Below, in pieces: positions 5,809 through 33,894 of a stretch of 64,000 nucleotides of DNA. Each line of letters opens with the position of its first letter. Position 1 is the stretch's first letter. The notes below the pieces were generated by a model that was given only the letters and a program-made list of their open reading frames with translations, was not told the origin of the DNA and ran no database searches. The stretch is from IMG/VR virus record IMGVR_UViG_3300045120_000462. One strand, 5' to 3'. The position numbers and the translations under genes are program-made. Source of the DNA: a virus.

Positions 5809-5812
5809 CTAA

Positions 5813-6013: not shown

Positions 6014-6022
6014 AGCGCCAAC

Positions 6023-13454: not shown

Positions 13455-13769
13455 ATGCAGGACGTGAACGCCCCGATCGACATCTTCCACCGGATCTCCC
13501 TGACCCTGATCGCCGACATCCGCAAGAAGCTGATCGAGCTGCACGACCCCGAGTGGGAGCCGGCGCCGATGGACCCCGAATGGGAACCGTCCCATCGTGA
13601 CTGTTTGCACCCCCGTCCGTACAGCGGCGGCTACCGTTCGCTGCTGGGGGAGCCGGCCCCACCCCTTCACCATGGTGACGAGGTGTTCTTCTACGATTAC
13701 GCCCTCGGCCGGGGAAGACACCCTTGTATCCTTGAACGTACCGATCGCACAGGAGTTATACGACGATGA
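13455..13769 (+). CDS. hypothetical protein
   Basis: ORF 13455..13769; high GC3 in the 5' part; ATGA coupling to the next gene. Confidence 0.55.
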   Translation: MQDVNAPIDIFHRISLTLIADIRKKLIELHDPEWEPAPMDPEWEPSHRDCLHPRPYSGGYRSLLGEPAPPLHHGDEVFFYDYALGRGRHPCILERTDRTGVIRR

Positions 13770-14244: not shown

Positions 14245-14607
14245 ATGGCGTCGAACAGTGACCGCAGGCACCTGACAACGCCGGGTGATGGGTCACGTCC
14301 CGGCGTCTGGCTGCCAATGGCCGGCCAGCGTGTCAGCGTGGCCCGCTACGACTCCGGCCTCAACCAGATCCACGTCATCTTCCAACGTGACGGCACGCCG
14401 TGGGTGTACGACCAAGTGCCCCGCAACATCTGGCGGAACTTCCGGCGCGCCCAATCGCCTGGCAAGTACATCAACCGTGTGCTCAACGACTACCCGTACT
14501 TCGAGGGGTCGTTCAGCTACGCCGGCCACCGCGACACCAACGACGCCGAGGAAGTGGATACCGGCCAGAACGAGCCGCCCGTCAACCGCTCTCAGATGAA
14601 CTGGTGA
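14245..14607 (+). CDS. KTSC-domain protein
   Basis: TAGGAGG SD at 14231-14237; VARYDSGLNQIHVIFQRDGTPWVYDQVPRNIWRNFRRAQSPGKYINRVL fits the KTSC pattern. Confidence 0.65.
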   Translation: MASNSDRRHLTTPGDGSRPGVWLPMAGQRVSVARYDSGLNQIHVIFQRDGTPWVYDQVPRNIWRNFRRAQSPGKYINRVLNDYPYFEGSFSYAGHRDTNDAEEVDTGQNEPPVNRSQMNW

Positions 14608-15411: not shown

Positions 15412-16998
15412 GTGACGGCCACTGTTCGCGAGATCGCCGAGGAACCGTATGAGGAGATCTACGACGATCCCGACGACGGCGAGGAGTTCATCGAGGTAGA
15501 TCCCGAGAGCGCCGAGTTCATCCATGAGCTGACCATGCGTTGCATGGTCTTCATGGAGGCGTTGTCCGAGATCGAGATGTACCCGTACCAGAAGGATCTC
15601 GCCTACCGCACGATCCAGTCGGTACTGCTCAACGACGGCGCCGAGATCACCGCCCTGTGGGCGCGCCAGTCGGGCAAGTCGACGGCGCTCGCCGCCATCA
15701 TCGCCACGCTGATGGTGCTGCTGCCCAAGCTGGCCGCTGCCTACCCCGATCAGTTCGGTCAGTTCAAGCGTGGCTTTTGGGTCGGCGTGTTCGCCCCCAC
15801 CGAGGAACAGGCGTACACGATCTGGTCGAAGATCTACGACATCCTGTCGTGCAAGCACGGCCGCGAGATCCTCTCCGACGAGGACATCGAGGACGTGCCG
15901 CAGAAGGAAGGCTCGAAGGTCAAGGTCGTCAAGCTCGTCAACAGCCAGTCGATCTGCCGCATGCAGACGGCCAACCCGAAGGCGCAGATCGAGTCGAAGA
16001 CGTACCACTTCGTACTCCTCGACGAGAGCCAGGACTGCGACTCGGAGAAGGCCAAGAAGTCGATCTTCCCGATGCTCGCCTCGACCAACGGCACCAAGGT
16101 GTTCACCGGCACCTGTTCAAGGAAGCGCAACTTCTTCTACGACGCCATCCAGGCCAACAAGCGTCGCGCCACCCGGCGCGGTGGCCGGCAGGATCACTTC
16201 CAGTACGACTGGAAGGTCGTCGTCAAGTTCAACAACTTCTACAAGAAGTACATCGCTGGTGAGAAGGAGCGCATCGGCGAGGACTCCGACGAGTTCCGCC
16301 TGAGCTACGCCTGCCAGTGGCTGCTCGAACAAGGAATGTTCGTGACCGAGGAGAGCTTCGACTTCCTCGGCGATCCCAACATGGACATCATCCCGTGGTT
16401 CGTGATCGACAAGTGCGTCGCCGGCATCGACCCGGCGCGCACGAAGGACTCGACCGTGGTGACGGTGATGTGGGTCGACTGGAACAACCCCGACCCGTAC
16501 GGGTACTGCCAGCACCGCATCCTCAACTGGTTGGAGATCCAGAACAAGCCGTGGGAAGAGCAGTACGCCCGCATCATCGACTTCCTCTCTCACTACAACG
16601 TGGCGATCATCGGCGTGGACGGTCAGGGTCTCGGTGGGCCGATCGCCGAGCGCCTCGCCCACGAGATGCCGTGGGTCGATGTGCGCTCGCTCGGGTCCAA
16701 CCCGGCCGACCAGGAGAAGCGGTGGAAGCGGTTGAAGGCGCTGATCGAGCGCCGGATGTTCATCTACCCGGCCAGCCGGCAGTGCAAGAAGCGCCGCTCC
16801 TACAAGCGCTTCCGTCTGCAGTTCGAGGAGTTGGAGACGATCTACAGCGGCAAGTTCATGCTCGCTGCGGCGCCCGAGGTCGTGAACAGCTACGACGACT
16901 ACTGCGACTCGTCCGCATTAGCGGTGGCGGTCACCGAGGATGAGGACTTCGGCGTGATCGCTCAGATCGACTCGCCGTTCCATGGTCGACGTCGGTAA
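15412..16998 (+). CDS. terL: terminase large subunit
   Basis: 528 aa; Walker A ARQSGKST; Walker B HFVLLDESQD; C-terminal nuclease-like GIDPARTKDSTVVTV. Confidence 0.9.
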   Translation: MTATVREIAEEPYEEIYDDPDDGEEFIEVDPESAEFIHELTMRCMVFMEALSEIEMYPYQKDLAYRTIQSVLLNDGAEITALWARQSGKSTALAAIIATLMVLLPKLAAAYPDQFGQFKRGFWVGVFAPTEEQAYTIWSKIYDILSCKHGREILSDEDIEDVPQKEGSKVKVVKLVNSQSICRMQTANPKAQIESKTYHFVLLDESQDCDSEKAKKSIFPMLASTNGTKVFTGTCSRKRNFFYDAIQANKRRATRRGGRQDHFQYDWKVVVKFNNFYKKYIAGEKERIGEDSDEFRLSYACQWLLEQGMFVTEESFDFLGDPNMDIIPWFVIDKCVAGIDPARTKDSTVVTVMWVDWNNPDPYGYCQHRILNWLEIQNKPWEEQYARIIDFLSHYNVAIIGVDGQGLGGPIAERLAHEMPWVDVRSLGSNPADQEKRWKRLKALIERRMFIYPASRQCKKRRSYKRFRLQFEELETIYSGKFMLAAAPEVVNSYDDYCDSSALAVAVTEDEDFGVIAQIDSPFHGRRR

Positions 16999-17010
16999 CG
17001 GGCAGCGAAC

Positions 17011-17016
17011 TACGCT
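17011..17016 (+). promoter_or_regulatory. -10-like hexamer, leaderless architecture
   Basis: AACTACGCT gagacc ATG(17023). Confidence 0.45.
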
Positions 17017-17022
17017 GAGACC

Positions 17023-17424
17023 ATGACGATTGCACCCAATCCGTTGTACCCCGAGCGGGCCAACCAGGCGTTCGAGCTGGCCTTCGCCGCCAACCCTGCG
17101 GGCAACCGTGGGGACATGCGGTTCGAGGAGGGCATCGGCACCGACACTGACGTTCCCAACGACTTCGTTCGTGGGGCGTTCGTCGACCCGACCGCCGCTC
17201 CGGGGCGCATCAACCACAACAACCCCGAGATGGTCTACAAGCACGCCGACGAGACGATGCAGGAGCGCGCCCACGTCGGCAGCGCATCGTGGATCGAGGC
17301 GCCGGCCATGCTCTCCGACTTCGTGGCAGGAGCCAGCGCCGGCCAGACGCCGCCGCAGTTCGAGATGATCGTGGTGCCTGGCGGCTACATGTACCGGCGA
17401 GCGCCAACGGTCATCGACGACTGA
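17023..17424 (+). CDS. hypothetical protein
   Basis: ORF 17023..17424. Confidence 0.65.
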   Translation: MTIAPNPLYPERANQAFELAFAANPAGNRGDMRFEEGIGTDTDVPNDFVRGAFVDPTAAPGRINHNNPEMVYKHADETMQERAHVGSASWIEAPAMLSDFVAGASAGQTPPQFEMIVVPGGYMYRRAPTVIDD

Positions 17425-17430
17425 GCTGTC

Positions 17431-17604
17431 ATGCTCAACCCCACCCAGTTCGGTCAGTACGGCCTGAGCCAGTACATCGAGGCGCACGAGTCGGGTGGCA
17501 CCGACACCGTGTACTTGAAGGGTGAGTCGACCCCCCGCCGAGTGTGGAAGGGACACCCGACCGAGCGGCCTGAGGGCTGGGTCCAAGCAGAGCTACCGAG
17601 GTAA
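17431..17604 (+). CDS. 57-aa hypothetical protein
   Basis: MLNPTQFGQYGLSQYIEAHESGG...; fills the gap between flanking genes; high GC3. Confidence 0.5.
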   Translation: MLNPTQFGQYGLSQYIEAHESGGTDTVYLKGESTPRRVWKGHPTERPEGWVQAELPR

Positions 17605-17607
17605 CAC

Positions 17608-18192
17608 GTGGCCCGTTCATACAAGTCAGCACTGCCGACATGGTCGACGTACACGCCTCACGTTGCTCCGATCGGCGGCATCCAGCCGGCGATGAACCAA
17701 GAGGTGCTGTGGCGTAACCGTGCTCGGCAGTGGACGCCGCCGTCGACCGCCGGCCAGTACCAGCGGTTCGCTGCCGAGGCTGCCAGCATGGTTCGAGGGA
17801 CCGGGTCGGCCGGTGCTGTCGCCGGGTTCCTGACTCACCGGCCGCTCTTCAACGCTGCGCTCGGAGCGATTCAACAGCGCGGCGCCAACAGGCGGCAGTT
17901 GGCGCAGCAGACGCAGCAGGCGATCAACCAACAGCAGGTGGTTCAGCAAGCGACCGGTCAGCCGCAGCAGCCGCAGCAGCCGGCCGGCGCGCAAGCTCCC
18001 CGCTCTGCTCCCCCGACGGTCAGCCCGACTGCGGTAGCAACTCGACAGGCGGCGCAGAGCAAGATCAGCATCCTCGCCGGCCAGGCTGTTGCATCGCCCA
18101 AGGCTGGACAGTCGACCGGACCAGCGAGCCTGATCACCGATGAGTGGCGCGATCGGTTGAACCAGAGCTTCACTCCCATCACCAACCCGTAA
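17608..18192 (+). CDS. hypothetical Gln-rich protein
   Basis: ORF 17608..18192; QQTQQAINQQQVVQQATGQPQQPQQP. Confidence 0.65.
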   Translation: MARSYKSALPTWSTYTPHVAPIGGIQPAMNQEVLWRNRARQWTPPSTAGQYQRFAAEAASMVRGTGSAGAVAGFLTHRPLFNAALGAIQQRGANRRQLAQQTQQAINQQQVVQQATGQPQQPQQPAGAQAPRSAPPTVSPTAVATRQAAQSKISILAGQAVASPKAGQSTGPASLITDEWRDRLNQSFTPITNP

Positions 18193-18202
18193 GGAAGAGA
18201 CC

Positions 18203-18361
18203 ATGGCAGAGCAGCAGGATTACACCGGGCAGTTGGCTCCTGGGCCGGAGGCAGCGGGCGCTCCCATCGATGAGCCGTACCAGGGCTTCGCGCCCTTCAT
18301 GCACGTCGGCTACTCGATGAACGCAGCGTTCGCCGAGGGCGTGCAGGCCGGCCGCTACTGA
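18203..18361 (+). CDS. 52-aa hypothetical protein
   Basis: AAGGAAGAG SD; MAEQQDYTGQLAPG... Confidence 0.5.
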   Translation: MAEQQDYTGQLAPGPEAAGAPIDEPYQGFAPFMHVGYSMNAAFAEGVQAGRY

Positions 18362-18363
18362 CC

Positions 18364-18744
18364 ATGCCTGAGCCGGTCCCACCCGGCCACATGCGGATGA
18401 AGCGCGGCGACATACGCAAGGTCGCCAACTCACCGCACTGGGATCGCAAGGCCCAGGAAGGCAAAGAGGTGATGGACCCGGGCTTCCCGGCCCAGCACAC
18501 ATGGTCGACAGCGAGAGACCTGATCCAAGGGGACGGCTTCTTTCACCAGGGGCAGTCCTGGGTGGTCAAGGATCTTCGTGATCACAACCTCGGACGCACT
18601 GTCGTGGTCGAGCCGCGCAAGGGGATGGTCGGGCGCACAGTGATGAGCCAGATGCAGTTCGGGACGCCGGGGATCACGATGGAGGACACCGACGAGCGCG
18701 CCTTCACGTTCCATCCCGACGAGATGATCGCCCGCCGCGGATAG
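18364..18744 (+). CDS. hypothetical protein
   Basis: ORF 18364..18744. Confidence 0.65.
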   Translation: MPEPVPPGHMRMKRGDIRKVANSPHWDRKAQEGKEVMDPGFPAQHTWSTARDLIQGDGFFHQGQSWVVKDLRDHNLGRTVVVEPRKGMVGRTVMSQMQFGTPGITMEDTDERAFTFHPDEMIARRG

Positions 18745-18768
18745 CCCCGGCCCTTCCAGGCCGTCGCT

Positions 18769-18774
18769 TACGCT
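18769..18774 (+). promoter_or_regulatory. -10-like hexamer
   Basis: CTTACGCT ggg GTG(18778) GTG(18781); the 6-nt spacing favours 18781 as the start. Confidence 0.35.
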
Positions 18775-18777
18775 GGG

Positions 18778-19260
18778 GTGGTGGACACCAACTGGCGAAT
18801 CAGCGTCGTCCGTAGCGTTGTTGCTCCGCTCATCATCGGGGTGGGCGTGTTGATGTTGATTCGTCTCGGTGGCGGCTCTCCCTTGTCCTCCATTGCGGGA
18901 GTCGCCACCATCTTCGCGATCGCCGTGGCGTGGTACATCGGCGCCCGTCTGGCCCAGCGCTCTCATCCGCAGCTCGGCTTCCTCCTCGGGGTATCGGTTC
19001 GACCTCGGTATGGAGAGGACGGTGAGAGCGAGCTAGCGCCGTCCCTGCGACGCACGCTCGTGCCGCTCGCCGTCGCCACGGCGGTCGGTTGCTTGGTTGG
19101 GGCGTTCATCGGGGGCGTCACGCCTGCACTGACCGTCGTGGCGACGGCACTTGCCTACTACGGGATCCTTCGCGCCGTCGAGGAACGTTCGGCGCCCGAC
19201 TCGACAGCTCGCAATGTCACCGGGCTGCTGCTCGGTGGGCGCGCCGTTCTGTACTACTGA
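18778..19260 (+). CDS. multi-pass membrane protein
   Basis: ORF 18778..19260; about 4 hydrophobic helices. Confidence 0.65.
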   Translation: MVDTNWRISVVRSVVAPLIIGVGVLMLIRLGGGSPLSSIAGVATIFAIAVAWYIGARLAQRSHPQLGFLLGVSVRPRYGEDGESELAPSLRRTLVPLAVATAVGCLVGAFIGGVTPALTVVATALAYYGILRAVEERSAPDSTARNVTGLLLGGRAVLYY

Positions 19261-19270
19261 GGAGCGTGGG

Positions 19271-20644
19271 GTGCCCAAGGAAGTCCGCCAGTACGGCAAG
19301 AAGGCACTGACGAAGCAGGCCGGCACGGGGTTGGAGGGGACCGCCACCAACTACACGCCCGAGCACATGGAGTCTCCCGATGTGCAGCGGACGATGGGCG
19401 AGATGCACGCTCGCCGGCTGTCGTTCGAGAACTCCCCCGGCAGTACTCGAATGCACTCACCGCTGCGCGGTGTCGGTGATCTCGACGTTGCGTACGAGAG
19501 CCGTGGCTGGCACGACATCGAGCGTCAGCACGGCGCCGCCGGCCCCTCGATGGGTGATTACAAGGAGCTGGCCGAGTCAGGCCACAACCCGTTCCCACAG
19601 CCGACCCGCTTCGAGGATCTGCCCGATGAAGAGCAGGCCCGCGCCCACGCTGGCTTGAAGGCGCACGGCACGTCGTACCGGCGCCTCGTCAACGACCTCG
19701 GGCGGGGACTAGACCGCGCCTACTCACGATCCAGTGAGATGGGCGGGATCCCGGTTGCCTCGAACTTCTACGAGCCGGAGGGTTTCCCTCGCCTGGTGAT
19801 CGCCCATCACATGCCCGAGGCGCCGGCCGAGCATGCTGCTGCGGCGATCGCCATGACGTCACCGAAGAACAAGTTCCTCCACGTGACGAACAAGGGTGCC
19901 GTGAACATGCCCAACATCAACTCCGCTGTGGCAGCGGGGTCGATCGCAACCAGTGGGCGCTACACGACGTCGGACCAGTTCAAGAAGATCCCCGGGCCGG
20001 AACTCAACAAGATCGGGCGCACGGTCAGTGGTGGTGGTGTCGGTCTCCACGGCAACGTGCGCAAGGCCGGCTACGCACTGCACCAGGGAGCCGAGGGCGG
20101 CGACATCTCCGAGTGGCGTGGCTTCCCGACGAAGGCCGCTCCGGCGGGCAGTAAGAAGGGTGGCGAACTCGGCGGCAGCCTCATCTTCGGAGGGTCGCCG
20201 AAGGCATCACCGTTTGCTTCATCGTTCATCGACGAGGCAGCGCCGTTCCATGTCACCGACGTGCACATGGCGTCGTTGGCGTTCCCGCACCTCTCGTCGA
20301 TCAAGGGTTCGGGCAAGAACATCAACCCGAGCGGCGCCAGTACCGGCACCAAGACCGAGCGCGAGCTGGCCGTCGAGCGTGTCCCCCACGCCCACGCCAT
20401 CATCGACCACGCCATGCGTACCGCCATGGGTGAGCGTGGCTTGAACAAGATCCGCTTCCAGCAGGGCGCCGCCTGGGGCGAGGAGCAGATCCACCGCACG
20501 ATCATGCCCGAGCCTGGTGGTCGGCGACTCGGGTTCCGTCCCGACACCGTCTACCAGTGGCAGGCAGCGACCATGCCGCACACGAACCTGAACTTCCGGG
20601 CACGTACCAAGGCGGGTGTTGGCACCCTCCACTTGCCAGACTAG
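19271..20644 (+). CDS. hypothetical protein (457 aa)
   Basis: GTG 19271 after GAGGAG; frame of ORF 19151..20644; no motif recognised. Confidence 0.65.
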   Translation: MPKEVRQYGKKALTKQAGTGLEGTATNYTPEHMESPDVQRTMGEMHARRLSFENSPGSTRMHSPLRGVGDLDVAYESRGWHDIERQHGAAGPSMGDYKELAESGHNPFPQPTRFEDLPDEEQARAHAGLKAHGTSYRRLVNDLGRGLDRAYSRSSEMGGIPVASNFYEPEGFPRLVIAHHMPEAPAEHAAAAIAMTSPKNKFLHVTNKGAVNMPNINSAVAAGSIATSGRYTTSDQFKKIPGPELNKIGRTVSGGGVGLHGNVRKAGYALHQGAEGGDISEWRGFPTKAAPAGSKKGGELGGSLIFGGSPKASPFASSFIDEAAPFHVTDVHMASLAFPHLSSIKGSGKNINPSGASTGTKTERELAVERVPHAHAIIDHAMRTAMGERGLNKIRFQQGAAWGEEQIHRTIMPEPGGRRLGFRPDTVYQWQAATMPHTNLNFRARTKAGVGTLHLPD

Positions 20645-20647
20645 AGT
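20642..20647 (+). promoter_or_regulatory. -10-like hexamer overlapping the upstream stop
   Basis: TAGAGT tatgac ATG(20654). Confidence 0.4.
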
Positions 20648-20653
20648 TATGAC

Positions 20654-20971
20654 ATGACATTGAATGACTCTGATCAGCCCCAGGACGACGTGTACTGGAA
20701 GCTCTCGTACAACATCAACCTGCCGCGCCCCAAGGTCAAGGTGCACCGGGTGGAGTGGGACGAGACGCAGGGCGTGCTGTTCGTCTACGTCTCGACGAGC
20801 AAGAACAAGCACCCCCGCGACGAGTACATCGACGGGATCCCGTTGTACGCCCCCGACGAGGACGGTGTCGACGTGCTCGTGGGCATGAACCCGGTGGCGC
20901 TCGGCGACCCGCCGCAGACGTTGGTCAAGGGGTGGCACCTCGACATGACTGAACGACTACTCGGGAGCTAG
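20654..20971 (+). CDS. hypothetical protein
   Basis: ORF 20654..20971. Confidence 0.65.
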   Translation: MTLNDSDQPQDDVYWKLSYNINLPRPKVKVHRVEWDETQGVLFVYVSTSKNKHPRDEYIDGIPLYAPDEDGVDVLVGMNPVALGDPPQTLVKGWHLDMTERLLGS

Positions 20972-20974
20972 CTG

Positions 20975-21535
20975 ATGACCACTCAGGATTCGTTGAGCCG
21001 GGAGCAGATGGGGCACCTGTTGGCCAACAAGCCTGAGGGGTTCAGCGTTCGTGCCTTTGCCCCCGATGTAGGCGAGAACGCCCATCACGGCTACATGGTC
21101 GCCATCGAGGGCCACGGTCAGGACTACCACCCTTCGGCTTCGGTGGACGAGGGGATGGACTTCGTTGCCAGGCGAGAAGAGGCGTTGCGCAAGCCCGAGC
21201 ACTACTTCGGTGGGTATCAGGGGTCCGACCCCGAGCGGACGGCTCTCGATGTCGCTCGCAAGCACCCCGACACGTTCTCTGGTCACGTTGCCGCCGGCAC
21301 TCAGGCGATGAGACTCAACCAGGAGGCGTACGGGCTACTTGGCGAACCAGACGACTACACCGACATGCCCAACCCCTACTACGAGTCAGGGGCTGGGCAT
21401 CATGCGCGGACGGTGAACATGGAGCAGATGGGGACGGCGATCCATCTCGCCGGCAAGCATCACCCCGGTGGGGGGATCGACTCGCCGGTTCCGTCTCGAT
21501 CAGCAGAGCTAGATCCGCCATCGAGGTTGCGGTGA
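20975..21535 (+). CDS. hypothetical protein
   Basis: ORF 20975..21535; 3' end overlaps the convergent gene by 76 nt. Confidence 0.6.
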   Translation: MTTQDSLSREQMGHLLANKPEGFSVRAFAPDVGENAHHGYMVAIEGHGQDYHPSASVDEGMDFVARREEALRKPEHYFGGYQGSDPERTALDVARKHPDTFSGHVAAGTQAMRLNQEAYGLLGEPDDYTDMPNPYYESGAGHHARTVNMEQMGTAIHLAGKHHPGGGIDSPVPSRSAELDPPSRLR

Positions 21536-21834
21536 TCAGCGCAGACCCAGCCCTCATCCTCCACGGCGACCGACGTCTTGCCACAGACGTGGCAGGGGTG
21601 GTTGGTCGTGAACTGCTTCGACCAGTCAGACAGCCCGCGTTCGTTGCGGACGCCCATGGCGGTGGAGAGCACCTTGCCGGCCGACCAGCGGCCGAAGTCA
21701 GTCGACTGGGTGAGCATCACCTGCTGGTAGTAGGCGATCTGCTCGATCAGCTCGTGGTCGGTGAGCGCCCGCAGCATCTCGGGGAGCGAGCCGGAACCAC
21801 TGAGGTGGTCTGTGGGCGTGATCGTCTTGTTCAT
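21460..21834 (-). CDS. hypothetical protein on the opposite strand (CHVC motif)
   Basis: ORF 21460..21852(-); ATG 21834 (MNKTITPT..) or 21852; palindrome in its upstream region. Confidence 0.55.
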   Translation of the reverse strand: MNKTITPTDHLSGSGSLPEMLRALTDHELIEQIAYYQQVMLTQSTDFGRWSAGKVLSTAMGVRNERGLSDWSKQFTTNHPCHVCGKTSVAVEDEGWVCADHRNLDGGSSSADRDGTGESIPPPG

Positions 21835-21838
21835 GACG

Positions 21839-21865
21839 TAGTCACGATACATCGTGTCGTGACTA
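21839..21865. promoter_or_regulatory. perfect 9-bp inverted repeat, candidate operator
   Basis: TAGTCACGA tacatcgtg TCGTGACTA, in the 53-bp gap between divergent genes 21834(-) and 21888(+). Confidence 0.5.
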
Positions 21866-21887
21866 CCAGCAACCGGAGGGGCCAGCG

Positions 21888-22142
21888 ATGATCAGCGGTC
21901 AGAACATCCGTCACGTCGGACCTCATCCCGAGCTGGCCTACATCGCCGAGGACACAGCGATGACCCCGGGGCAGCATGCCCTCGCCCAGGCGGCTCGGGG
22001 CCGGCCGCTTACCAGTGACGCGATCGGGGAAACAACAGGTTCCGACTACAGCGCTTCCGTAGCTCGTGCTCGGGCCAACGTTGTCTTCGAGGGACAGGAA
22101 CGTCGAGAGGGCGCCAGTCGTGCTCACGACAAACGCTCGTAA
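21888..22142 (+). CDS. hypothetical protein
   Basis: ORF 21888..22142; GGAGGGG SD. Confidence 0.5.
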   Translation: MISGQNIRHVGPHPELAYIAEDTAMTPGQHALAQAARGRPLTSDAIGETTGSDYSASVARARANVVFEGQERREGASRAHDKRS

Positions 22143-22156
22143 CAGAGGAGAACAAC

Positions 22157-22357
22157 ATGCACAGCCTGATGCTCGCCGTCGATGACGGCCTCATCTCCGG
22201 CAACGCCAACTTCGCAGACATCTGCTTCATCATCGCCATCGTGGCGGCGGTGCTGTCGGCGGTCGGCCAGTTCGGCGCCAACCAACTCACCAAGCACGCC
22301 GGCTGGCTTCTCGCCACCGCCGTCGCCTTCGTCGCTCTCGGGTGGTTGGTGCTTTGA
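22157..22357 (+). CDS. small two-helix membrane protein
   Basis: ORF 22157..22357; AGAGGAG SD; hydrophobic segments. Confidence 0.65.
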   Translation: MHSLMLAVDDGLISGNANFADICFIIAIVAAVLSAVGQFGANQLTKHAGWLLATAVAFVALGWLVL

Positions 22358-22359
22358 CG

Positions 22360-22365
22360 TACCGT
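22360..22365 (+). promoter_or_regulatory. -10-like hexamer within a repeated 12-mer
   Basis: GTACCGTTGAGG 22359-22370 is identical to 30757-30768; followed by an SD-led gene at 22395. Confidence 0.35.
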
Positions 22366-22394
22366 TGAGGCGAACACTCACAAGGAGAACTGCC

Positions 22395-22541
22395 ATGACC
22401 GAACCCACTCCCGAAACGACCGAGGACGCCAGCCGCCGCGAGCAGGCCAAGGCCCAACTCGGCGAGGCCGTCGAAGGCTTGAAGGCCGAGCTGGCCACCC
22501 GGCTCGACCAGTTCCTCGACGAGGTCGGCGCTCTCATCTGA
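22395..22541 (+). CDS. 48-aa coiled-coil protein
   Basis: AAGGAG SD; MTEPTPETTEDASRREQAKAQLGEAVEGLK... Confidence 0.5.
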   Translation: MTEPTPETTEDASRREQAKAQLGEAVEGLKAELATRLDQFLDEVGALI

Positions 22542-22542
22542 C

Positions 22543-23322
22543 GTGGCCGCACGACAGCAACGTCTCCCGGGGGTCGACTGGCACGAGGGTGACCTTCGAC
22601 GAGAGGAGTCCCTGGCTCAGGGCGCCAAGGCGTACGCCCGCGGCCAAGGACTCCCCTACCGCCCCGGGAACATTGCTGCCGTGCGCGCTGACCCCAGCGT
22701 CATGCACGCTGTCGGTGGGATCGTGCAATCCCAGCAGGGCGCCCCTCCGCACATGTCCGAGCAGTTGGCCGGCTCGTATGCCGCACTGCACGAGGGGATC
22801 AACCGTCAGTACGCACACCTCACCTCGCCGGTCGAGGAAGGTGGCCTCGGCATCACCCACGAGGTCTCTGCCGAAGACCCGTATGCCAACATCGGAGAGG
22901 CGATGGCCGACGTGCGACAGAATCGCCGTCTGCGCACGTTGGCCACCGCCGTAACGCAGTCAGGTGAGGGGCGCGAGGGATCTCCCGCCTACGCCAACCC
23001 GATGATGCCGCCCGAGATGAACGACAAGTTCCGGGCCGTGCACGACGCCTTCGGCCACCTGGCCACCGGGCGCAGCTTCGATCGTCACGGTGAGGCGGCG
23101 TCGTTCCAACACCACGCAGCGATGTTCCCGCCCGAAGCTCACGCCGCTATGGCCTCCGAGCTGCGAGCGCAGAACTCGGCGTTGATCCGCATGGGCAACT
23201 TCCCCGAGAACAAGCCCTACGACCTGCCGGCGTGGGCGTCACAGGTCAAGGCCACGCTGCCCGGCGTCAAGCGCGTCAGGATGTCGCCGGCACCGACGCT
23301 GTTCGACCAGGAGGACGCATGA
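22543..23322 (+). CDS. hypothetical protein
   Basis: ORF 22543..23322, GTG start. Confidence 0.65.
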   Translation: MAARQQRLPGVDWHEGDLRREESLAQGAKAYARGQGLPYRPGNIAAVRADPSVMHAVGGIVQSQQGAPPHMSEQLAGSYAALHEGINRQYAHLTSPVEEGGLGITHEVSAEDPYANIGEAMADVRQNRRLRTLATAVTQSGEGREGSPAYANPMMPPEMNDKFRAVHDAFGHLATGRSFDRHGEAASFQHHAAMFPPEAHAAMASELRAQNSALIRMGNFPENKPYDLPAWASQVKATLPGVKRVRMSPAPTLFDQEDA

Positions 23323-23498
23323 CCATCCGTGGCCGACACCCGATGCACGCCAACGATCCACCGAAGCAGCCGAGCAAAGAGGTCGAGTTGTACACCGACC
23401 CGTACACGTGGAGTGAGGAACGGCTCGATGAGTGGGCGGCAAGCGAGCCGGTGACCAAGGCTGCTGCATGGTTGCGAGACCACAACGGCCCGTTCTAG
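23319..23498 (+). CDS. hypothetical protein
   Basis: ATG 23319 overlaps stop (ATGA); frame of ORF 23232..23498. Confidence 0.55.
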   Translation: MTIRGRHPMHANDPPKQPSKEVELYTDPYTWSEERLDEWAASEPVTKAAAWLRDHNGPF

Positions 23499-23507
23499 GG
23501 AGAGACC

Positions 23508-23681
23508 ATGGCGATCAGAGGTAAGAGCAACAAGAGGACGCCGCAGATCGGCGAGGAGTGGAACGACCCTCGTGTCGACGAGTACGGCGACCCCGGTGAC
23601 GAAGGGTTCGAGAAGCAGCTCTGGCGGGCCACCGCCAAGCCGCCACCCGGCCCCGTCAACCCCGTCAAGGATTGGGACTAG
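23508..23681 (+). CDS. 57-aa hypothetical protein (MAIRG N-terminus)
   Basis: GGGAGAG SD; MAIRGKSNKRTPQIGEEW... Confidence 0.5.
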   Translation: MAIRGKSNKRTPQIGEEWNDPRVDEYGDPGDEGFEKQLWRATAKPPPGPVNPVKDWD

Positions 23682-23683
23682 CA

Positions 23684-23899
23684 ATGGCCATCAGAGGACG
23701 AGTCCCACGCTTCGGTGTCGGTGACACCGTGCACGTGCCGAGTGTCGGCCCGGTCACCGTCAACAAGATGGGCAAGCGCTACTTCTCGGGCACGAACCGA
23801 GACACGGGCGACGCTGTCGGCGACACCGGCATCGAGTTGGCCGCTGGCCAGACGATGAAGGGCACCAATCCGTGGAAGGTCGAGAAGGGAGCTGAGTGA
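23684..23899 (+). CDS. hypothetical protein (MAIRG N-terminus)
   Basis: Frame of ORF 23672..23899; ATG 23684; MAIRGRVPRFGVGDTV... Confidence 0.55.
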   Translation: MAIRGRVPRFGVGDTVHVPSVGPVTVNKMGKRYFSGTNRDTGDAVGDTGIELAAGQTMKGTNPWKVEKGAE

Positions 23900-24033
23900 T
23901 GCCAGGAGGCAAGGATCCCGGTCCTTCGATCAAGAAGCCCGCTGAGTACGAGGCGTTGAAGAAGAAGGGGATGTCGAAGTCGAAGGCGGCTGCCATCTCC
24001 AACGCCGACGCCAAGAAGGAGAAGAAGAAGTAG
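23899..24033 (+). CDS. 44-aa basic Lys-rich protein (GPSIKKPxxYEALKKKGMSK type)
   Basis: ATG overlaps stop by 1 nt; MPGGKDPGPSIKKPAEYEALKKKGMSKSKAAAISNADAKKEKKK, resembles a small conserved actinobacterial family. Confidence 0.5.
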   Translation: MPGGKDPGPSIKKPAEYEALKKKGMSKSKAAAISNADAKKEKKK

Positions 24034-24173
24034 TGGCCACGCTCCTGTGGATCTTGGCGGTGCTGTGCATCGTCTTCGGTGTGGTGCGCCTCATCCAGGG
24101 AGCGATCCTGTGGGGTCTCGTGCTGATCGTCGTCGGACTGATCCTCGGCGGCGGAGGCATCGGAGTCCACTAA
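24033..24173 (+). CDS. 46-aa two-helix membrane peptide
   Basis: GTG overlaps TAG by 1 nt; VATLLWILAVLCIVFGVVRLIQGAILWGLVLIVVGLILGGGGIGVH. Confidence 0.5.
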   Translation: MATLLWILAVLCIVFGVVRLIQGAILWGLVLIVVGLILGGGGIGVH

Positions 24174-24973
24174 TGGTTGCTCTCCACCAGCGCATCTACC
24201 GGGGCGAGATCCGTGGGGCGTTCCCGACGTACGAGCACCCGGACCCGGCGGCACACGCCGCCGAGGATCCCGAGGGCTTCCTGCACAAGTGGATGCAGCC
24301 GCACTACCCGTTCCCCAAGGGTTGGACCGGCGACGCCCCCACCGTCGGTCAACACTGGACGCGCTCGCCGCAGGCCATCCCCGAGCGGTTCGTGGAGCCG
24401 ATGCTCCACCAGGCGCAGCCGGGCGTGCCGATGGGCAAGCGCGAGCAGACCGCCGTGATGCGCCGGGAGGCGACCGAGCAGGACACAGGTGGCCCGGGCT
24501 ACGGCATGCCCGGCCACGAAGAGCACCGGGCGATGATGGACAAGTTCCACTCGTACGCCGAGCGCGCCGAGCGCGAGGGCATCAACACGTACCACGATCT
24601 CTCCGGCGGTGACCCCGATCGCCCGGGCAAGGCGCGCAAGTACAACATGGCCGTGGTGTGGGAGGGCCAGCAGCACGAGCGTGGCGAGACCGGCACCAAC
24701 TACGAGGACGAGACGAACATCCCCTTCGGCGAGCACGTCACCGTTACCGGGGCGCGTCTCTACGTACCGAAGTCAGGTTCGGTGCACGACTTCGGCCAAC
24801 GGCACCCGTCGCCGTTCACGTCCGAGGAGCGTGCGTTCGCCCATCACGAGACGATGAACCGCTCGGGCTACAGCGCCATCAACCCGTCGTCGTCCGTCCC
24901 GTGGAGCCGCATACAGTTCGCCAACGCCGTGGAGTTGAAGGTCGGCCGTAACCCTGGTCAGTGGAGTCGGTGA
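24173..24973 (+). CDS. hypothetical protein with possible R-S-ExE ADP-ribosyltransferase-like motifs
   Basis: ATG 24173 overlaps TAA by 1 nt; frame of ORF 24047..24973; IYRGE, HWTRSP, YEDETNIPFGEHVTVTG. Confidence 0.55.
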   Translation: MVALHQRIYRGEIRGAFPTYEHPDPAAHAAEDPEGFLHKWMQPHYPFPKGWTGDAPTVGQHWTRSPQAIPERFVEPMLHQAQPGVPMGKREQTAVMRREATEQDTGGPGYGMPGHEEHRAMMDKFHSYAERAEREGINTYHDLSGGDPDRPGKARKYNMAVVWEGQQHERGETGTNYEDETNIPFGEHVTVTGARLYVPKSGSVHDFGQRHPSPFTSEERAFAHHETMNRSGYSAINPSSSVPWSRIQFANAVELKVGRNPGQWSR

Positions 24974-25003
24974 CTTCTAACCCGGCCGGCGACCCCTGCG
25001 AAC

Positions 25004-25009
25004 TACGGT
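25004..25009 (+). promoter_or_regulatory. -10-like hexamer, leaderless architecture
   Basis: AACTACGGT tggttc ATG(25016). Confidence 0.45.
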
Positions 25010-25015
25010 TGGTTC

Positions 25016-25414
25016 ATGGCTAAGCACGAGCACATGTCGGCTGCATCAGCGCTGACCCATGCGGCGCTGATCGGTCACGTCATTCGAGGCACGGTGTTGG
25101 AGGGCAAGTCGTTCGGCGACGCCCACGCTGATGCGCGCAGCGCTGTTGGGGATGCTTCTGACGCCTTCCAGCGTCAGCCCTACCAAGACCCGTCCTCACA
25201 GGCCACCGGGCCGATGATCGATGAAGCGTTCTACCCAGTCCCCGCAGGGAGCCTCGACATCAACTCGGGGGATCTCTTCGACACCAGCGGCAAGCCGCTG
25301 GTCGGCCCAGCCGCCAACCGGGTGAACCAGGAAGCAAGGCTCGCCGAACAGGATCGATCGTGGAGAGCGTTCCATTCCGTCCACTCCCCAGGAGCGCGCA
25401 TAGCTCCACCGTGA
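25016..25414 (+). CDS. hypothetical protein
   Basis: ORF 25016..25414. Confidence 0.6.
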   Translation: MAKHEHMSAASALTHAALIGHVIRGTVLEGKSFGDAHADARSAVGDASDAFQRQPYQDPSSQATGPMIDEAFYPVPAGSLDINSGDLFDTSGKPLVGPAANRVNQEARLAEQDRSWRAFHSVHSPGARIAPP

Positions 25415-25427
25415 TCAGGGGCGTAAC

Positions 25428-25433
25428 TACGCT
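25428..25433 (+). promoter_or_regulatory. -10-like hexamer, leaderless architecture
   Basis: AACTACGCT gggtcc ATG(25440). Confidence 0.45.
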
Positions 25434-25439
25434 GGGTCC

Positions 25440-25901
25440 ATGGCAGCCCCCGCACCCGTACTCACGATCACGCCTGGCACGGCGACGCTGACGATGGCGA
25501 ACCTCGCCCCGACTGTGCAGCTCGCCGACACCGGCACCCACTCCCCCGTCGCTGACAGCCGCGCCTTCAAGATGGACGGCGCCACGGTGAAGTCGACGGT
25601 GGGGCCATCGGGCGCCGGCATCAGCACCGCCGTGCCGTACCCAGTCGCCCTCACAGGAGGAACGCATCAGGGCACGGTGACCACCGTCAGTGCCGGCGGC
25701 TCGACCACGAGCGCCAACGTGCCGATCGTTGTCACTGACTCGGTCGCCGCCGCCAACACGCTGTACACCGACAGCAATGGCAACGCCGTGCGCATGCACC
25801 CCAGCCTGCTTTCCAACGAGTACCGCGACCCGACGATGTGCACGCCGGGACCGCAGACGGCGTCGGGGATCTACAACGCACGTACCCGCGGCTCGATCTA
25901 G
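25440..25901 (+). CDS. Ig-like (Big_2-like) domain protein
   Basis: ORF 25440..25901; VLTITPGTATLTMANLAPTVQLADTG pattern; beta-rich T/S/V composition. Confidence 0.55.
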   Translation: MAAPAPVLTITPGTATLTMANLAPTVQLADTGTHSPVADSRAFKMDGATVKSTVGPSGAGISTAVPYPVALTGGTHQGTVTTVSAGGSTTSANVPIVVTDSVAAANTLYTDSNGNAVRMHPSLLSNEYRDPTMCTPGPQTASGIYNARTRGSI

Positions 25902-26098
25902 TGCCGAGGGTGGCGGACCCACCCGGGCCTGGTGAGCGTGAGACATCGGCCCGGCTCCGCTTCGACGAGCGGCGCGCCCTGATCGAGGCTGCCGGCGATC
26001 CGCACAAGGGTGTCGATGTGATCACGCCACGCATGGAGCGCATCCGAACCGAGCTGTCGCACCTCTTCAAGAAGGCGGCGACCGATGCCAGCCGATGA
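25901..26098 (+). CDS. 65-aa hypothetical protein
   Basis: GTG 25901 overlaps TAG by 1 nt; frame of ORF 25838..26098. Confidence 0.45.
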   Translation: MPRVADPPGPGERETSARLRFDERRALIEAAGDPHKGVDVITPRMERIRTELSHLFKKAATDASR

Positions 26099-26546
26099 GC
26101 ATCTCGGCAAGCAGTTCAAGGTGTACCACGGCACGCAGTATCCATGGGAGGGACCGCCGAGCGCATCGCCCGAGCACCCGCTCCACGTCGCCAGCAACAC
26201 CGACCTCCCCGGCGACTACGCCTTCCCCGTCGGGGGTTACGACCCCGCCGAAGACTACGAGTCGATGACTCGTGGTCGCATCAGGGAGTACGCCGTCGAC
26301 CCCGCCGCCAAGATCCATCACACCGAGGAAGGTCACTTCGACGGCATCCTCTCGCCAGAGGGGCAGGAGCAAGCCAAGGGCCACGACATGACGATGTTCA
26401 AGGAAGGTCTCGGCATCGTCTACAACCCGGCCGTGCTCCATCACGTTCGCGACATTGGCTACAAGGAGCACATGCACTCCGATCCAGAGGACGAGATGGA
26501 GTACATGCACGGCGAGGACTGGCGCCACCACCTGCGCAGGCGATGA
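26085..26546 (+). CDS. Arr-like (ADP-ribosyltransferase fold) protein, divergent paralogue
   Basis: ORF 26085..26546; ADEHLGKQFKVYHGTQY..HVASNTDLPGDYA..GRIREYAVDP. Confidence 0.5.
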   Translation: MPADEHLGKQFKVYHGTQYPWEGPPSASPEHPLHVASNTDLPGDYAFPVGGYDPAEDYESMTRGRIREYAVDPAAKIHHTEEGHFDGILSPEGQEQAKGHDMTMFKEGLGIVYNPAVLHHVRDIGYKEHMHSDPEDEMEYMHGEDWRHHLRRR

Positions 26547-26857
26547 CTGCCACCGACCACCTCAACCGTGAGCTGTTCCACGCCACGACGCACCCGTTTC
26601 AAATCGGCGACGTGGTCAACCCCACCGACACCGAGCACAGCGAGACACCGATGGCGTTTGCCACGCCCGACTTGGGCCTCGCCAACTCGATCGCCCGTGG
26701 CAAGGCCCGCTGGCACAACAAGCGCAACCCTGATGACCAGAGGACCGGACACGTCTTCGCTGTCGAGCACATGAGTGAGCCGGCCGATCTGTGGATGCCG
26801 AGCAGGTACGTCGCAGACCCCGCTGGGTTCCGAGTCGTACGTAAGGTTGAGCAGTGA
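26543..26857 (+). CDS. Arr-like (rifampin ADP-ribosyltransferase fold) small protein
   Basis: ATG 26543 overlaps stop (ATGA); LFHATTHPFQIGDVVNP / MAFATPDLGLANSIA / GHVFAVEHMSEP / SRYVADPAGFRVVRKVE parallel the Arr blocks FYHGTKANLAIGDLL / IYFSAL..AVWGAELA / YIYIVEPTGPFE / SYRTCEPLRIVGVVE (Arr sequence recalled from memory). Confidence 0.55.
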   Translation: MTATDHLNRELFHATTHPFQIGDVVNPTDTEHSETPMAFATPDLGLANSIARGKARWHNKRNPDDQRTGHVFAVEHMSEPADLWMPSRYVADPAGFRVVRKVEQ

Positions 26858-28554
26858 GCGTTGCCTTCTGGCCCCCGAGCTACCGCGCCGGTACCTCCGA
26901 CCTCTCGATCCAGATCTCCCCTCTCGGGCTGGTCGACCTCTCCAACGAGGAGATGGACGTCCACGGGATCCGGCTGTCTCGGTACTCGCTGTATTGGGCG
27001 CACTACCTCGGCCACCACTGGGCGTACCGACGAGAGATCGGCGAGCCGCAGTTCACGTTCAACTACGTGCGCGCTCTGTCGGACTACCTCACCAACTTCA
27101 CCTTCGGCCGCGGCGTGACCTTCCAGTCGCCGCCGGCTACCTCGGCCATCATCCCGGCGATCTTGAAGCGGGTGTGGGAGCAGGACAACCGCAAGGCATC
27201 GATCCTGTGGGAGATGGGCCAGATCGCCTCGGTGACCGGTGACCTCTTCGTCAAGGTGGCGTACGAAGATCCCTTCGTCGACTCGGCGGGCCGGCTACAT
27301 CCTGGCCGTGTCCGCATCCTCCCTCTGAACCCGGCCAACTGCTTCCCACAGTGGCACGAGCACGACCGACAGCGGATGCTCTCGTTCAAGTTGAAGTACC
27401 GGTTCTTCTCGACCGACCAGACCGGCACCCGCATCGTCAACACGTACATCGAGCGGATCACCGACACGGGCATCGAGGAGTACGTCAACGACGAGCTGAT
27501 CTCGGCGCGGCCGAACCCGCTCGGCGTGATCCCGATCGTCTACGTCCCCAACATCCTGATCTCAGGATCGCCGTGGGGGATGAGCGACATCGCCGAGATC
27601 ATCCCGCTCAATCGCGAGTACAACGAGAAGGCCGTCGAGATCTCCGACATCGTCAACTACCACTCCGCTCCCGTCACGGTGATCACCGGGGCCAAGGTGC
27701 CGCAGTTGGAGAAGGGTGCGCGCAAGACGTGGTTCCTGCCCAAGGACGCCAAGGTCGAGACCCTGCAGTCCACGTGGCAGCTAGAGCACATGCTCGGCTA
27801 CATGGACGTCGTCAAACGAGGGATGCACGAGATGACCGGCGTGCCCGAGCAGGCGCTCGGTCAGGTGCAGCCGATCAGCAACACGAGCGGCGTGGCGCTG
27901 GCGATCCAGTACGCCCCGACGATGCAGCGCTTCCGCATGAAGAAGAACAACTTCGAGTCGGGCTTCCAGCAGATCAACGAGCTGGTGATCCTCACGCTGT
28001 TCCAGAAGGAACCGCAGTCGATGATGTTCAACCCCATGGAGGACACGGCGCCCAAGCCGGGCCAGCTCACACAGCTCGACCCCGCTGACCCCAACAGCTA
28101 CGAGACGTCGACCTACTGGCCCGAGCCGTTGCCGGTCGATATCCTCGTCAAGCTCAACGAGATCACGCAGAAGATGCAGCTCGGGTTGGAGTCCAAGCGC
28201 GGTGCGCTCGCCGACCTTGGTGAGGAGTTCCCCGACGACAAGCTCGCCGAGATCTTCGCCGAGATCCTCGAAGACGCCAAGGATCAGGGTGCGTTGCAGT
28301 TGCAGACCTCGGCGATCCAGGCGGCGATCGTCGCCCTCACCGGAATGGTCCCGGCTACTGGCGAGCCGGCCGACCCCGGTGGGGGCGGTGGCGATGGCCA
28401 GGGCGTCAACAAGCCCGATGCTGGTGGTACCGGCACAATGCCCGGTCTCGTGCTCGACCAGAACACGATGAACCTGATGAATGAGCTGACCACTCGTGCC
28501 TACATGCCGCGCATGGGACAGTTCCGTAACCCGGCCAACACCAGTAACGAGTAG
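26854..28554 (+). CDS. portal protein
   Basis: 566 aa; GTG overlaps stop (GTGA); LYWAHYLGHHW motif near the N-terminus, size, and position upstream of scaffold and capsid. Confidence 0.85.
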   Translation: MSVAFWPPSYRAGTSDLSIQISPLGLVDLSNEEMDVHGIRLSRYSLYWAHYLGHHWAYRREIGEPQFTFNYVRALSDYLTNFTFGRGVTFQSPPATSAIIPAILKRVWEQDNRKASILWEMGQIASVTGDLFVKVAYEDPFVDSAGRLHPGRVRILPLNPANCFPQWHEHDRQRMLSFKLKYRFFSTDQTGTRIVNTYIERITDTGIEEYVNDELISARPNPLGVIPIVYVPNILISGSPWGMSDIAEIIPLNREYNEKAVEISDIVNYHSAPVTVITGAKVPQLEKGARKTWFLPKDAKVETLQSTWQLEHMLGYMDVVKRGMHEMTGVPEQALGQVQPISNTSGVALAIQYAPTMQRFRMKKNNFESGFQQINELVILTLFQKEPQSMMFNPMEDTAPKPGQLTQLDPADPNSYETSTYWPEPLPVDILVKLNEITQKMQLGLESKRGALADLGEEFPDDKLAEIFAEILEDAKDQGALQLQTSAIQAAIVALTGMVPATGEPADPGGGGGDGQGVNKPDAGGTGTMPGLVLDQNTMNLMNELTTRAYMPRMGQFRNPANTSNE

Positions 28555-33880: not shown

Positions 33881-33882
33881 TC

Positions 33883-33888
33883 TACGCT
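33883..33888 (+). promoter_or_regulatory. -10-like hexamer, leaderless architecture
   Basis: ATCTACGCT ggcatc ATG(33895). Confidence 0.45.
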
Positions 33889-33894
33889 GGCATC

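Follow-up and report, generated by a model that had tools for sequence, protein, structure and literature searches.

The internal proteins of T-even phages are diverse defence (anti-defence) proteins that have only a capsid targeting sequence (CTS) in common (PMC3012670). They are injected together with the DNA, and the ADP-ribosyltransferase (ART) Alt is packaged likewise (PMC3012670, PMC9503650). ART genes frequently neighbour those for terminase, portal and capsid, and packaging of their products into the head has been predicted (PMC9503650, Iyer et al. 2022). The same prediction has been made in a study of polyvalent proteins, according to which solo versions of their domains are found among the late structural genes of mycobacteriophages (PMC5512222, Iyer et al. 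2017). The present analysis deals with a region of the IMG/VR virus record IMGVR_UViG_3300045120_000462 in which the genes for the large terminase subunit (TerL) and the portal protein are separated by 25 genes, labelled g1 to g25 in the order from TerL to portal. All positions refer to the analysed stretch of 64,000 nucleotides, which we call the window, and labels such as L006 denote the loci with which it was compared.

Another precedent is provided by the hyperplastic regions of T4-type phages and the morons of lambdoid phages, junctions at which small orphan genes (ORFans) with their own promoters turn over fast between close relatives. Hyperplastic regions usually lie among early genes, as in T4, and morons at the ends of late operons, whereas the zone described here splits the normally adjacent pair of TerL and portal.

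Our analysis shows that the TerL-portal gap represents an expanded version of a plasticity zone common to the whole BRock-like clade of ~110 kb actinobacterial myoviruses. Apart from g1, its ~24 small genes come, go and are exchanged fast, even between genomes that are 96–98% identical. On balance we judge it probable, though only modestly so, that these genes constitute a hypervariable effector arsenal which is expressed late and partly loaded into the head, with two short shared N-terminal peptides, tags A and B, as candidate loading signals. Hypervariable accessory regions and head-proximal ARTs are already known kinds. What appears to be undescribed in the literature searched is a TerL-portal split of up to 10.7 kb, a portal-tied family of very small ARTs resembling the Arr enzymes, the unsolved fold of g14 and, above all, N-terminal tags that are independent of protein family.

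The likeness to the T-even internal proteins and their CTS lies in polymorphic, small and unrelated proteins with a short common N-terminal peptide, as found here for tag A, and in genes that are, in our case presumably, tied to a late, head-associated programme. In contrast to the T-even system, there is no sequence relation, the tag reading M-x-A-x-D/E-H-L... here, and the present system shows no recognised prohead protease or scaffolding core; it also differs in its actinobacterial host, its leaderless-looking starts and its location between TerL and portal. With the polyvalent and MuF systems it shares an ART, the g14 domain and, in the gaps of relatives, proteins with HExxH motifs, all encoded beside terminase and portal. 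Indeed, domains of polyvalent proteins do recur next to the portal and terminase genes, namely the g14 fold and eight ART-PolyVal matches within the g25 family. None of the gap proteins, however, appears to combine several effector domains in one large polypeptide: here there are separate small genes (104–259 aa) instead of one giant protein, and no MuF was found.

Variability of the TerL-portal gap

For comparison, 80 IMG/VR loci were retrieved by means of the portal protein, and further contigs by means of g7 homologs. In the 50 distinct loci with both anchors the TerL-portal distance ranges 14-fold, from 0.75 to 10.7 kb, with a median of ~2 kb. The shortest gap has 754 bp and two genes, the gaps of the minimal relatives in general measuring 0.75–0.85 kb with two genes; Bacillus phage BCD7 has ~240 bp between TerL and portal. 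Long gaps are found in L008, L006 and L018 (7.2–8.2 kb), in the window (9.9 kb) and in L087 (10.7 kb). Clustering of the 237 open reading frames (ORFs) in 48 distinct gaps of 0.75–9.9 kb gave 120 gene families, 94 of which (78%) are confined to a single locus. The sole general one is the g1 family: 41 of the 48 gaps contain a member, tblastn detects 67 loci with one, and none of the six BRock-like phage records lacks it. The synteny comparison thus agrees with the original prediction of an accessory module, which was made from the window sequence, and shows the region to be variable.

The turnover extends to close relatives. Despite portal identities of 88–89%, 12 of the 25 window genes lack a counterpart in L006 and L008, in both of which the central 4.4 kb (window 19264–23711) are replaced at the DNA level. 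The sister contig L086 (110,829 bp) is 96–98% identical to the window, and the sole break in collinearity lies at window 20971–21840, where g9 and g10 are replaced in L086 by 668 bp with a different forward ORF and a different reverse CxxC ORF of 52 aa. Homology resumes inside a palindrome at 21838–21866, which marks the right breakpoint of the swap. Since this cassette has been exchanged between sisters that are otherwise so similar, turnover of the gap genes is ongoing.

The region had also been described as an inserted island, and as a single event this is not borne out. The g1 core is present in most gaps, the GC content of the gap (0.64–0.67) is like that of its flanks (0.62–0.65), and Pfam and PHROG scans found neither an integrase nor a transposase or homing endonuclease (no specific search was made for flanking repeats). 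Insertion of one mobile element was rejected, as neither the enzymes nor the deviant composition of an integrative or homing element were detected.

The nearest cultured relatives are the ~113–116 kb Streptomyces phages BRock, Alone3, LuckySocke, GiJojo and pSt2308, with amino acid identities of 44–45% for TerL (44% by tblastn to the terminases of BRock, Alone3 and GiJojo) and 52–56% for the portal, the latter range also applying to these three phages. TerL matches Pfam Terminase_6C at 5e-7 and is a large terminase of the T4 type; the portal matches SPP1_portal at 4e-24 and is of the SPP1 type. No nucleotide-level match to the window region was obtained by megablast among 50,697 phage records, the GC content of the window is 62–68%, and no tRNA genes were found within its 64 kb. 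The proteins of the window lie on a contig of 111,442 bp. The source is an uncultured BRock-like soil myovirus of ~111 kb, most likely with an actinobacterial host.

The TerL-portal junction of this clade would be a defined place in which to seek new effectors and counter-defence proteins of actinobacterial phages. It already offers concrete objects: a mini-ART family tied to the portal, a g14 domain that folds well, carries an invariant motif of His, Asp and Glu and lacks a relative of solved structure, and a candidate packaging peptide.

Genes of the gap

Genes were called by frame analysis of the GC content at third codon positions (GC3) and inspection of start sites. TerL and portal had been predicted to be split by about 25 genes, and this is indeed the case, with 9,855 bp and 25 genes, 24 of them forward and one reverse. 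The features of the region are as follows.

15412–16998, + strand: TerL, the left anchor; TAGCCT 6 nt before the GTG start
17023–17424, + strand: g1, 133 aa, acidic; lineage-core gene, outside the variable set; AACTACGCT-N6-ATG start
17431–18744, + strand: g2 (57 aa), g3 (194 aa), g4 (52 aa) and g5 (126 aa), small ORFans
18778–19260, + strand: g6, membrane protein of 159–160 aa with 3–4 hydrophobic spans; TACGCT 6 nt before a GTG at 18781
19271–20644, + strand: g7, 457 aa, the largest gene of the gap; homologs on other 110–123 kb contigs
20654–20971, + strand: g8, 105 aa; TTGGCA-17-TAGAGT ends 6 nt before the ATG
20975–21535, + strand: g9, 186 aa; convergent with g10, 76-nt overlap
21460–21852, − strand: g10, 130 aa, CxxC...CxxH at the C-terminus; the minus frame is backed by GC3
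21838–21866: palindrome GTAGTCACGATAC-ATC-GTGTCGTGACTAC with 13-bp arms, on or immediately ahead of the g10 start, 22 nt upstream of g11
21888–22541, + strand: g11 (84 aa), g12 (66 aa, two hydrophobic spans) and g13 (48 aa, acidic coil), ORFans with counterparts in the sister genome only
22543–23322, + strand: g14, 259 aa; matches phrog_3170 at 1e-29
23319–23899, + strand: g15 (59 aa), g16 (57 aa) and g17 (71 aa), consecutive, each opening with tag B
23899–24173, + strand: g18 (44 aa, Lys-rich, assigned by Pfam) and g19 (46 aa, membrane protein by hydrophobicity)
24173–24973, + strand: g20, 266 aa; 76% identity to a gene of L008
25016–25901, + strand: g21 (132 aa) and g22 (153 aa, Thr/Ala/Gly/Val-rich); AACTACG(G/C)T-N6-ATG at each
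25901–26546, + strand: g23 (65 aa) and g24 (153 aa), the latter with tag A and a YHGT motif
26543–26857, + strand: g25, 104 aa, predicted Arr-like mini-ART; opens with tag A, stop codon overlapping the portal start
26854–28554, + strand: portal, the right anchor; TAAGGT 6 nt before the GTG start

The calls agree with those in L086, for which an independent gene caller gave 23 genes in the gap, most of them equal in length to ours. Comparison of the window with L086 gives 151 differences in gap genes, 103 of them at codon position 3, and 92 synonymous versus 32 non-synonymous codon changes; because of this excess of third-position and synonymous changes we conclude that the called frames are under purifying selection.

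Apart from g18 and g14 (the latter matching a PHROG of unknown function) no product had a Pfam or PHROG match. No head-assembly family was hit by any of the 25 in these scans, in agreement with the prediction that recognisable assembly genes are lacking, and relaxing Pfam to E<=10 for 10 of the products gained nothing further. The proteins (44–457 aa) are apparently single-domain, and all-against-all BLASTP gave no paralogs inside the gap. The expected membrane protein at 18778 (g6) was confirmed with three strong hydrophobic spans, as were two of the three predicted small ones, those at 22157 (g12) and 24033 (g19); the third was not, as the hydrophobicity scan found no other. The 457-aa protein at 19271 and the reverse gene with its palindrome likewise stand, the latter by frame plot and repeat. 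As RNA the palindrome folds with −19.6 kcal/mol (z = −3.1). The Lys-rich protein at 23899 is a member of DUF7218 (PF23855; 5.7e-15, 55.7 bits at a gathering cut-off of 27), a family also recorded for its orthologs in L086 and L087.

Among the remaining genes, g3 is Gln/Ala-rich with a pI of 11.8 and, together with g4, common to L006, L008 and L087, g2 and g5 have counterparts in the sister genome L086 only, and g6 has counterparts in L006 (80%) and L008 (73%). The slot of g7 holds a DUF7178 protein in L006 and L078. The idea that g7 itself might be a diverged DUF7178 protein was rejected, there being no Pfam match in 11 family members and no link by hhalign. The g1 family profile had no match in PDB or PHROG, and g22, which had been predicted to be Ig-like, none in Pfam even at E<=10.

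A putative mini-ART before the portal gene

The last gene of the gap, g25, is coupled to the portal by the overlap of its TGA stop with the portal GTG start (GTGA). By the fold of its model and by transitive homology its product is predicted to be an Arr-like mini-ART with the corresponding activity. Neither the g25 sequence nor a profile of it and its close homologs, eight in number, matched the PDB. The AlphaFold (AF2) model built on the eight-homolog alignment has a pLDDT of 78, and its three top Foldseek matches are the Arr structures 2hw2, 9iaf and 9iba (E 3e-4 to 2e-3, prob 1.0, TMq 0.59–0.63), followed by weaker matches to pertussis toxin S1, ParT, RES and KptA, all of which are ART folds. 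The model thus has an ART fold resembling Arr, with a split beta-sheet core.

A profile search of 1.84 billion representatives extended the family to 133 clusters (50% identity) of proteins of 95–160 aa, and an alignment of 92 family sequences matched Arr alone in the PDB (E 0.003). In this alignment H19 and Y49 of Arr correspond to family positions 13 and 39, and its V-E-P strand to 74–76. Of the 92 members, 36 match Pfam Arr-ms (best 8e-8), 8 ART-PolyVal and 8 DUF3990. The histidine at position 13 is invariant (92/92), position 14 is glycine in 84 and position 15 threonine or serine in 91 members, position 39 is aromatic (Y, F or W) in 89 (F in the window), and E75 is present in 75, so that the family has the conserved histidine, aromatic and acidic residues of the H-Y-[EDQ] clade of ARTs. 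Arr (PDB 2hw2; PF12120) is both the best structural and the only profile match and belongs to a similar size class, with the three positions aligned; in contrast to Arr, g25 is ~40 residues shorter, shares 18% identity with it, is phage-encoded and coupled to the portal, and nothing here points to an action on rifamycin. It also differs, being small and Arr-like, from the ART-PolyVal, Alt and N4 kinds which have been named as the commonest in viruses.

The position of the gene is maintained. A g25-family ART precedes the portal in all five contigs of the window subclade, each time overlapping the portal start, and in more distant loci, whose portals are 61–62% identical, it lies 12 nt (L018) or 382 nt (L019) before the portal. 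In total, an ART is found directly before the portal in 7 of 50 gaps.

Several ART-like proteins had been predicted in the gap. This holds for g25 by fold, profile and motif. The case of g24 is weaker: over its first ~70 residues only, hhalign gave a match to the ART family with a probability of 27% (E 7e-4), and it had no PDB sequence match, so it is possibly a degenerate ART. The proposal that g20 is an ART of the R-S-E type was rejected, since it showed no Pfam match at E<=10, an hhalign probability of 0.2% to the ART family and no homolog in the phage database. Outside the gap, a clear paralog of the Arr-like mini-ART, of 147 aa, is encoded among the head and neck genes at 33279–33722 (+ strand). 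Its product aligns with the g25 family at an hhalign probability of 96% (E 1e-9), has Q in place of the strand glutamate (V-Q-P) and is 94% identical in L006 and L007.

The g14 domain

The product of g14 has 61 homologs, and in an alignment of 45 sequences the block NDKFRAVHDxFGH..G....RHGE......H..............E...Q is invariant. Its AF2 model is of high confidence (pLDDT 92, pTM 0.87), and neither the fold (best E about 1, TM <= 0.18) nor the profile has a counterpart in the PDB. The fold does recur in the viral structure library BFVD (E 1e-13 to 1e-7, TMq 0.4–0.7, mostly 0.6–0.7), mostly as a single domain within phage proteins of 600–1477 aa that are annotated as 'Phage head morphogenesis domain-containing' (MuF), 'ART-PolyVal-like domain-containing' or 'Large polyvalent protein associated domain-containing' (LPD). 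In addition, the domain is found in gp205 of Rhodococcus phage E3 (858 aa, 'structural protein'), where it is fused to DUF7178, and in gp99 of Mycobacterium phage Alice, which adjoins the DUF7178 protein gp98 in the head-gene block. To judge from its homologs and its predicted fold, g14 is a stand-alone copy of a domain that is otherwise built into large polyvalent virion proteins.

The helix with HDxFGH is similar to the one that binds Fe in Phe/Trp hydroxylases, and these enzymes occur among the weak Foldseek matches. An assignment of g14 to the aromatic-amino-acid hydroxylases or HD-type enzymes was nevertheless rejected, because with TM-scores of at most 0.18 and E about 1–4 there is no relation of fold.

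Shared N-terminal peptides

Tag A is defined as M-[PA]-A-x-[DE]-H-[LV]-[GSN]-x-[QED]-[FQL] and tag B as M-[AT]-I-R-G-[RK]. In the window, tag A opens g24, g25 and the gene at 30770, and tag B opens g15, g16 and g17; both are confined to 23.3–31.1 kb, that is, to the head-gene region. Across all fetched DNA, tag A was found at the start of 25 non-identical ORFs with a minimum length of 60 aa; every one of them belongs to the window subclade and lies on the gene strand, and the opposite strand has none. Without their first 12 residues these proteins fall into 12 families unrelated by BLAST. Among the bearers are the ART, a 422-aa HExxH protein and a gene of L088, and the product of the 30770 gene and a 209-aa protein of L006 have only their first ~10 residues in common with the ART profile. 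One protein body can bear either tag: that of g17 has tag B here, and that of its L008 ortholog has tag A.

At the DNA level, the sequence upstream of tag A is not conserved, and within the tag conservation is highest at the second and lowest at the third codon position, so that it is the peptide on which selection acts. For the same reasons the tag was rejected as a DNA-level recombination linker or an RNA element. In the g25 model residues 1–7 are of low confidence, which would fit a free tail.

The L088 gene lies at 7929–8294 of its contig, encodes 121 aa (MTAEEHLGGQFFHV...) and, compared with L087, is inserted exactly between TerL and g1 in contigs that otherwise match. A second small accessory cluster is located just 3' of the major capsid gene. 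It comprises one tag-A gene in the window (30770–31105, + strand) and up to four consecutive ones in L006 (15608–17200), L007 (8819–10100) and L008 (13907–14740).

To judge from their sequences, other subclades have shared N-termini of their own. In the gap of L019, MKKRGE.QF opens both a 134-aa ART and a 161-aa protein (ORFs at ~714–1200 and 2646–3051 of the gap), and in L012, L014 and L055 LNP.QF occurs near the start of several gap proteins.

As to origin, tag A may have spread from the ART gene, or some of its bearers may be ART paralogs that diverged past recognition. A more far-reaching and rather doubtful interpretation is that tags A and B are portable capsid-loading signals of an 'unbundled polyvalent protein' system of this clade. 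Its small effectors, exchangeable and each with a tag of its own, would enter the head and be injected from it. Its contents would be mini-ARTs, the domain with the HD..GH motif, HExxH proteins and ORFans, encoded between TerL and portal and after the capsid gene, and it would be analogous in function to the internal proteins and CTS of T4 but evolutionarily independent of them. If this were true, ~11 added residues could send any protein into the capsid, which would provide a handle for loading actinophage capsids.

Promoter-like hexamers

Many of the gap genes had been predicted to possess -10-like elements of their own. We find such elements at g1, g6, g8, g21 and g22, and TerL and portal have them too. 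The sequence AACTACG(C/G)T occurs three times in the 64 kb against 0.25 expected, and each time its hexamer TACG(C/G)T ends 6 nt before an ATG, that of g1, g21 or g22. More generally, TANNNT is found exactly 6 nt before a start-like triplet in 0.48% of such triplets as background, and at 4 of 24 starts in the gap (P = 5e-6). Eleven sites of this kind in the window open ORFs of at least 40 aa, and 10 of the 11 are at, or in frame with, called starts.

Sites of the form TANNNT-N6-start: TerL, g1, g6 (at 18781), g8, g21, g22, portal, 30770, 33895 and 45785

The site of g8 is the only match to a full sigma-70-type promoter in the region. The hexamers 5' of g1, g6, g21 and g22 are kept in L005–L008 while the adjacent sequence drifts, the motif of g1 being kept in L006 and L008; the more distant g1 homologs have ordinary Shine-Dalgarno sequences in place of the hexamer. 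No enrichment of terminators was seen in the region. The start of the 30770 gene reads TACCGT-N6-GTG, and the site at 33895 suggests that the gene listed as 33682–34755 truly starts there.

In actinobacterial promoters of leaderless mRNAs, a -10 hexamer at this spacing puts the transcript start on the start codon. From this known layout and the spacing of TANNNT, N6 and start we infer leaderless transcripts from one promoter class common to gap genes and core head genes. The dense -10 hexamers 6 nt before starts could serve as a simple phage model for the leaderless expression of late genes. All gap genes but one lie on the strand of the head genes and are tightly packed or overlapping. The original prediction held that the gap genes are expressed with the head genes or packaged alongside them. 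Co-expression is plausible, because the strand is the same, the genes are densely packed, the hexamers are as at TerL and portal, and g25 overlaps the portal; packaging is argued from context and analogy.

Possible function of the gap genes

According to the reading that we modestly favour, the array would be made late, together with the head, and would supply effector and counter-defence proteins. Part of it would be loaded into the capsid with the common N-terminal peptide as the loading signal and would be delivered with the phage DNA; the delivered ART would then modify a host macromolecule or small molecule using NAD+, and the variability would reflect an arms race with the hosts.

Several points weigh against this reading. 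Some 20 genes of the gap are without a functional clue, so that the term arsenal is based on two or three placed genes, and neither a MuF protein nor a prohead protease was recognised in the window. As for the ART, only one of the five AF2 models of g25 was confident, the window protein has alanine (as seven members in all do) at the glycine of H-G-[ST], and it does not itself match any Pfam ART model even at E<=10 or reach the cut-off of Arr-ms (PF12120). Moreover, proteins of the wider ART family usually begin with MAASD(H/N)L... (60 of 92 by a relaxed pattern), and tag A could mark diverged ART paralogs or 5' ends copied by recombination and not a portable signal. The three membrane proteins would suit superinfection exclusion or lysis timing better than packaging, and promoters within the array could signal early or independent instead of late expression.

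The most serious competitor, which we consider less probable but by no means far-fetched, is a set of accessory genes that are not packaged but, each under a promoter of its own, serve the phage inside the cell that produces it, at a junction that tolerates insertions; they could take over the host, counter its defences, exclude superinfecting phages or time lysis. The promoter-like sites within the gap, five or more in number and among them the full sigma-70-type site 5' of g8, are what it would lead one to expect, as are the membrane proteins, the reverse-strand Zn-ribbon gene g10 with its regulatory-looking palindrome and the fact that MuF and protease were not recognised in the window; the membrane proteins and the unit of g10 and palindrome suit it better than they do the favoured reading. 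Yet TerL and portal use the same type of promoter, the ART is translationally coupled to the portal and keeps its position in distant relatives, the g14 domain is otherwise found in virion-module proteins, and the shared tags need a common handling of unrelated proteins, all of which speaks against it.

The high proportion of single-locus families (78%), most of which have no homolog or domain, and the 14-fold range of gap length could also reflect a neutral dumping ground, in which selfish or functionless passengers accumulate at a recombination-permissive junction without a common role. We regard this as improbable in view of the ratio of about 3 to 1 between synonymous and non-synonymous changes in the sisters, the conserved promoter-like sites and N-terminal tags, and the wide distribution of the g14 and g25 families with their conserved motif positions. 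Least credible of all is the view that the gap holds unrecognised head-assembly or structural genes, such as those for decoration, scaffolding or an ejection channel, in an arrangement that is the norm of the lineage. It could appeal to the g1 core of the whole clade, to the Thr/Ala/Gly/Val-rich g22, which the subclade keeps and which differs more between the sisters than any other gene, and to a weak coiled-coil match of g13 to a scaffolding PHROG (E 0.0016); but no gene of the gap except g1 is conserved clade-wide, minimal relatives need two genes in 0.75–0.85 kb, and BCD7 does with ~240 bp.

Further observations

Upstream of TerL, the window encodes a DNA-binding or excisionase-like protein (13766–14224, + strand; phrog_597, 4.5e-6) and a small protein (14245–14607, + strand), in whose L086 and L087 orthologs Pfam identifies KTSC; none of the products was recognisable as a canonical small terminase. 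On the 3' side, the portal is followed by a scaffold-like gene and then by those for the major capsid protein, tail sheath, tail tube and a baseplate protein.

The gaps of relatives hold genes of diverse kinds. In L006, the product of 5569–6837, and in L006 and L008 that of the gene directly before the ART (359 and 365 aa), contain HExxH motifs (LIHEMGHAHH, VLHEFGHNVDF); these proteins have no Pfam match and may be metallopeptidases. L018 has an ORF of 1239 aa in which repeats containing W(N/D) form an extended stretch, and L055 a 308-aa protein of the Exo_endo_phos (EEP) family that bears a signal peptide (Pfam 2e-5). In Alone3, GiJojo and BRock (L001–L003) there are two or three tandem paralogs of ~100–124 aa (MA.K/R...G), and the gap of Alone3 additionally holds an endonuclease VII gene.

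Finally, two genes of the window differ from L086 far more than their neighbours, which show 0–2 differing positions: g22 (25440–25901), the most diverged gene between the sisters, with 49 differences in 462 nt and 15 amino acid changes, and g17 (23684–23899) with 21 differences in 216 nt. These peaks point to local recombination or diversifying selection.

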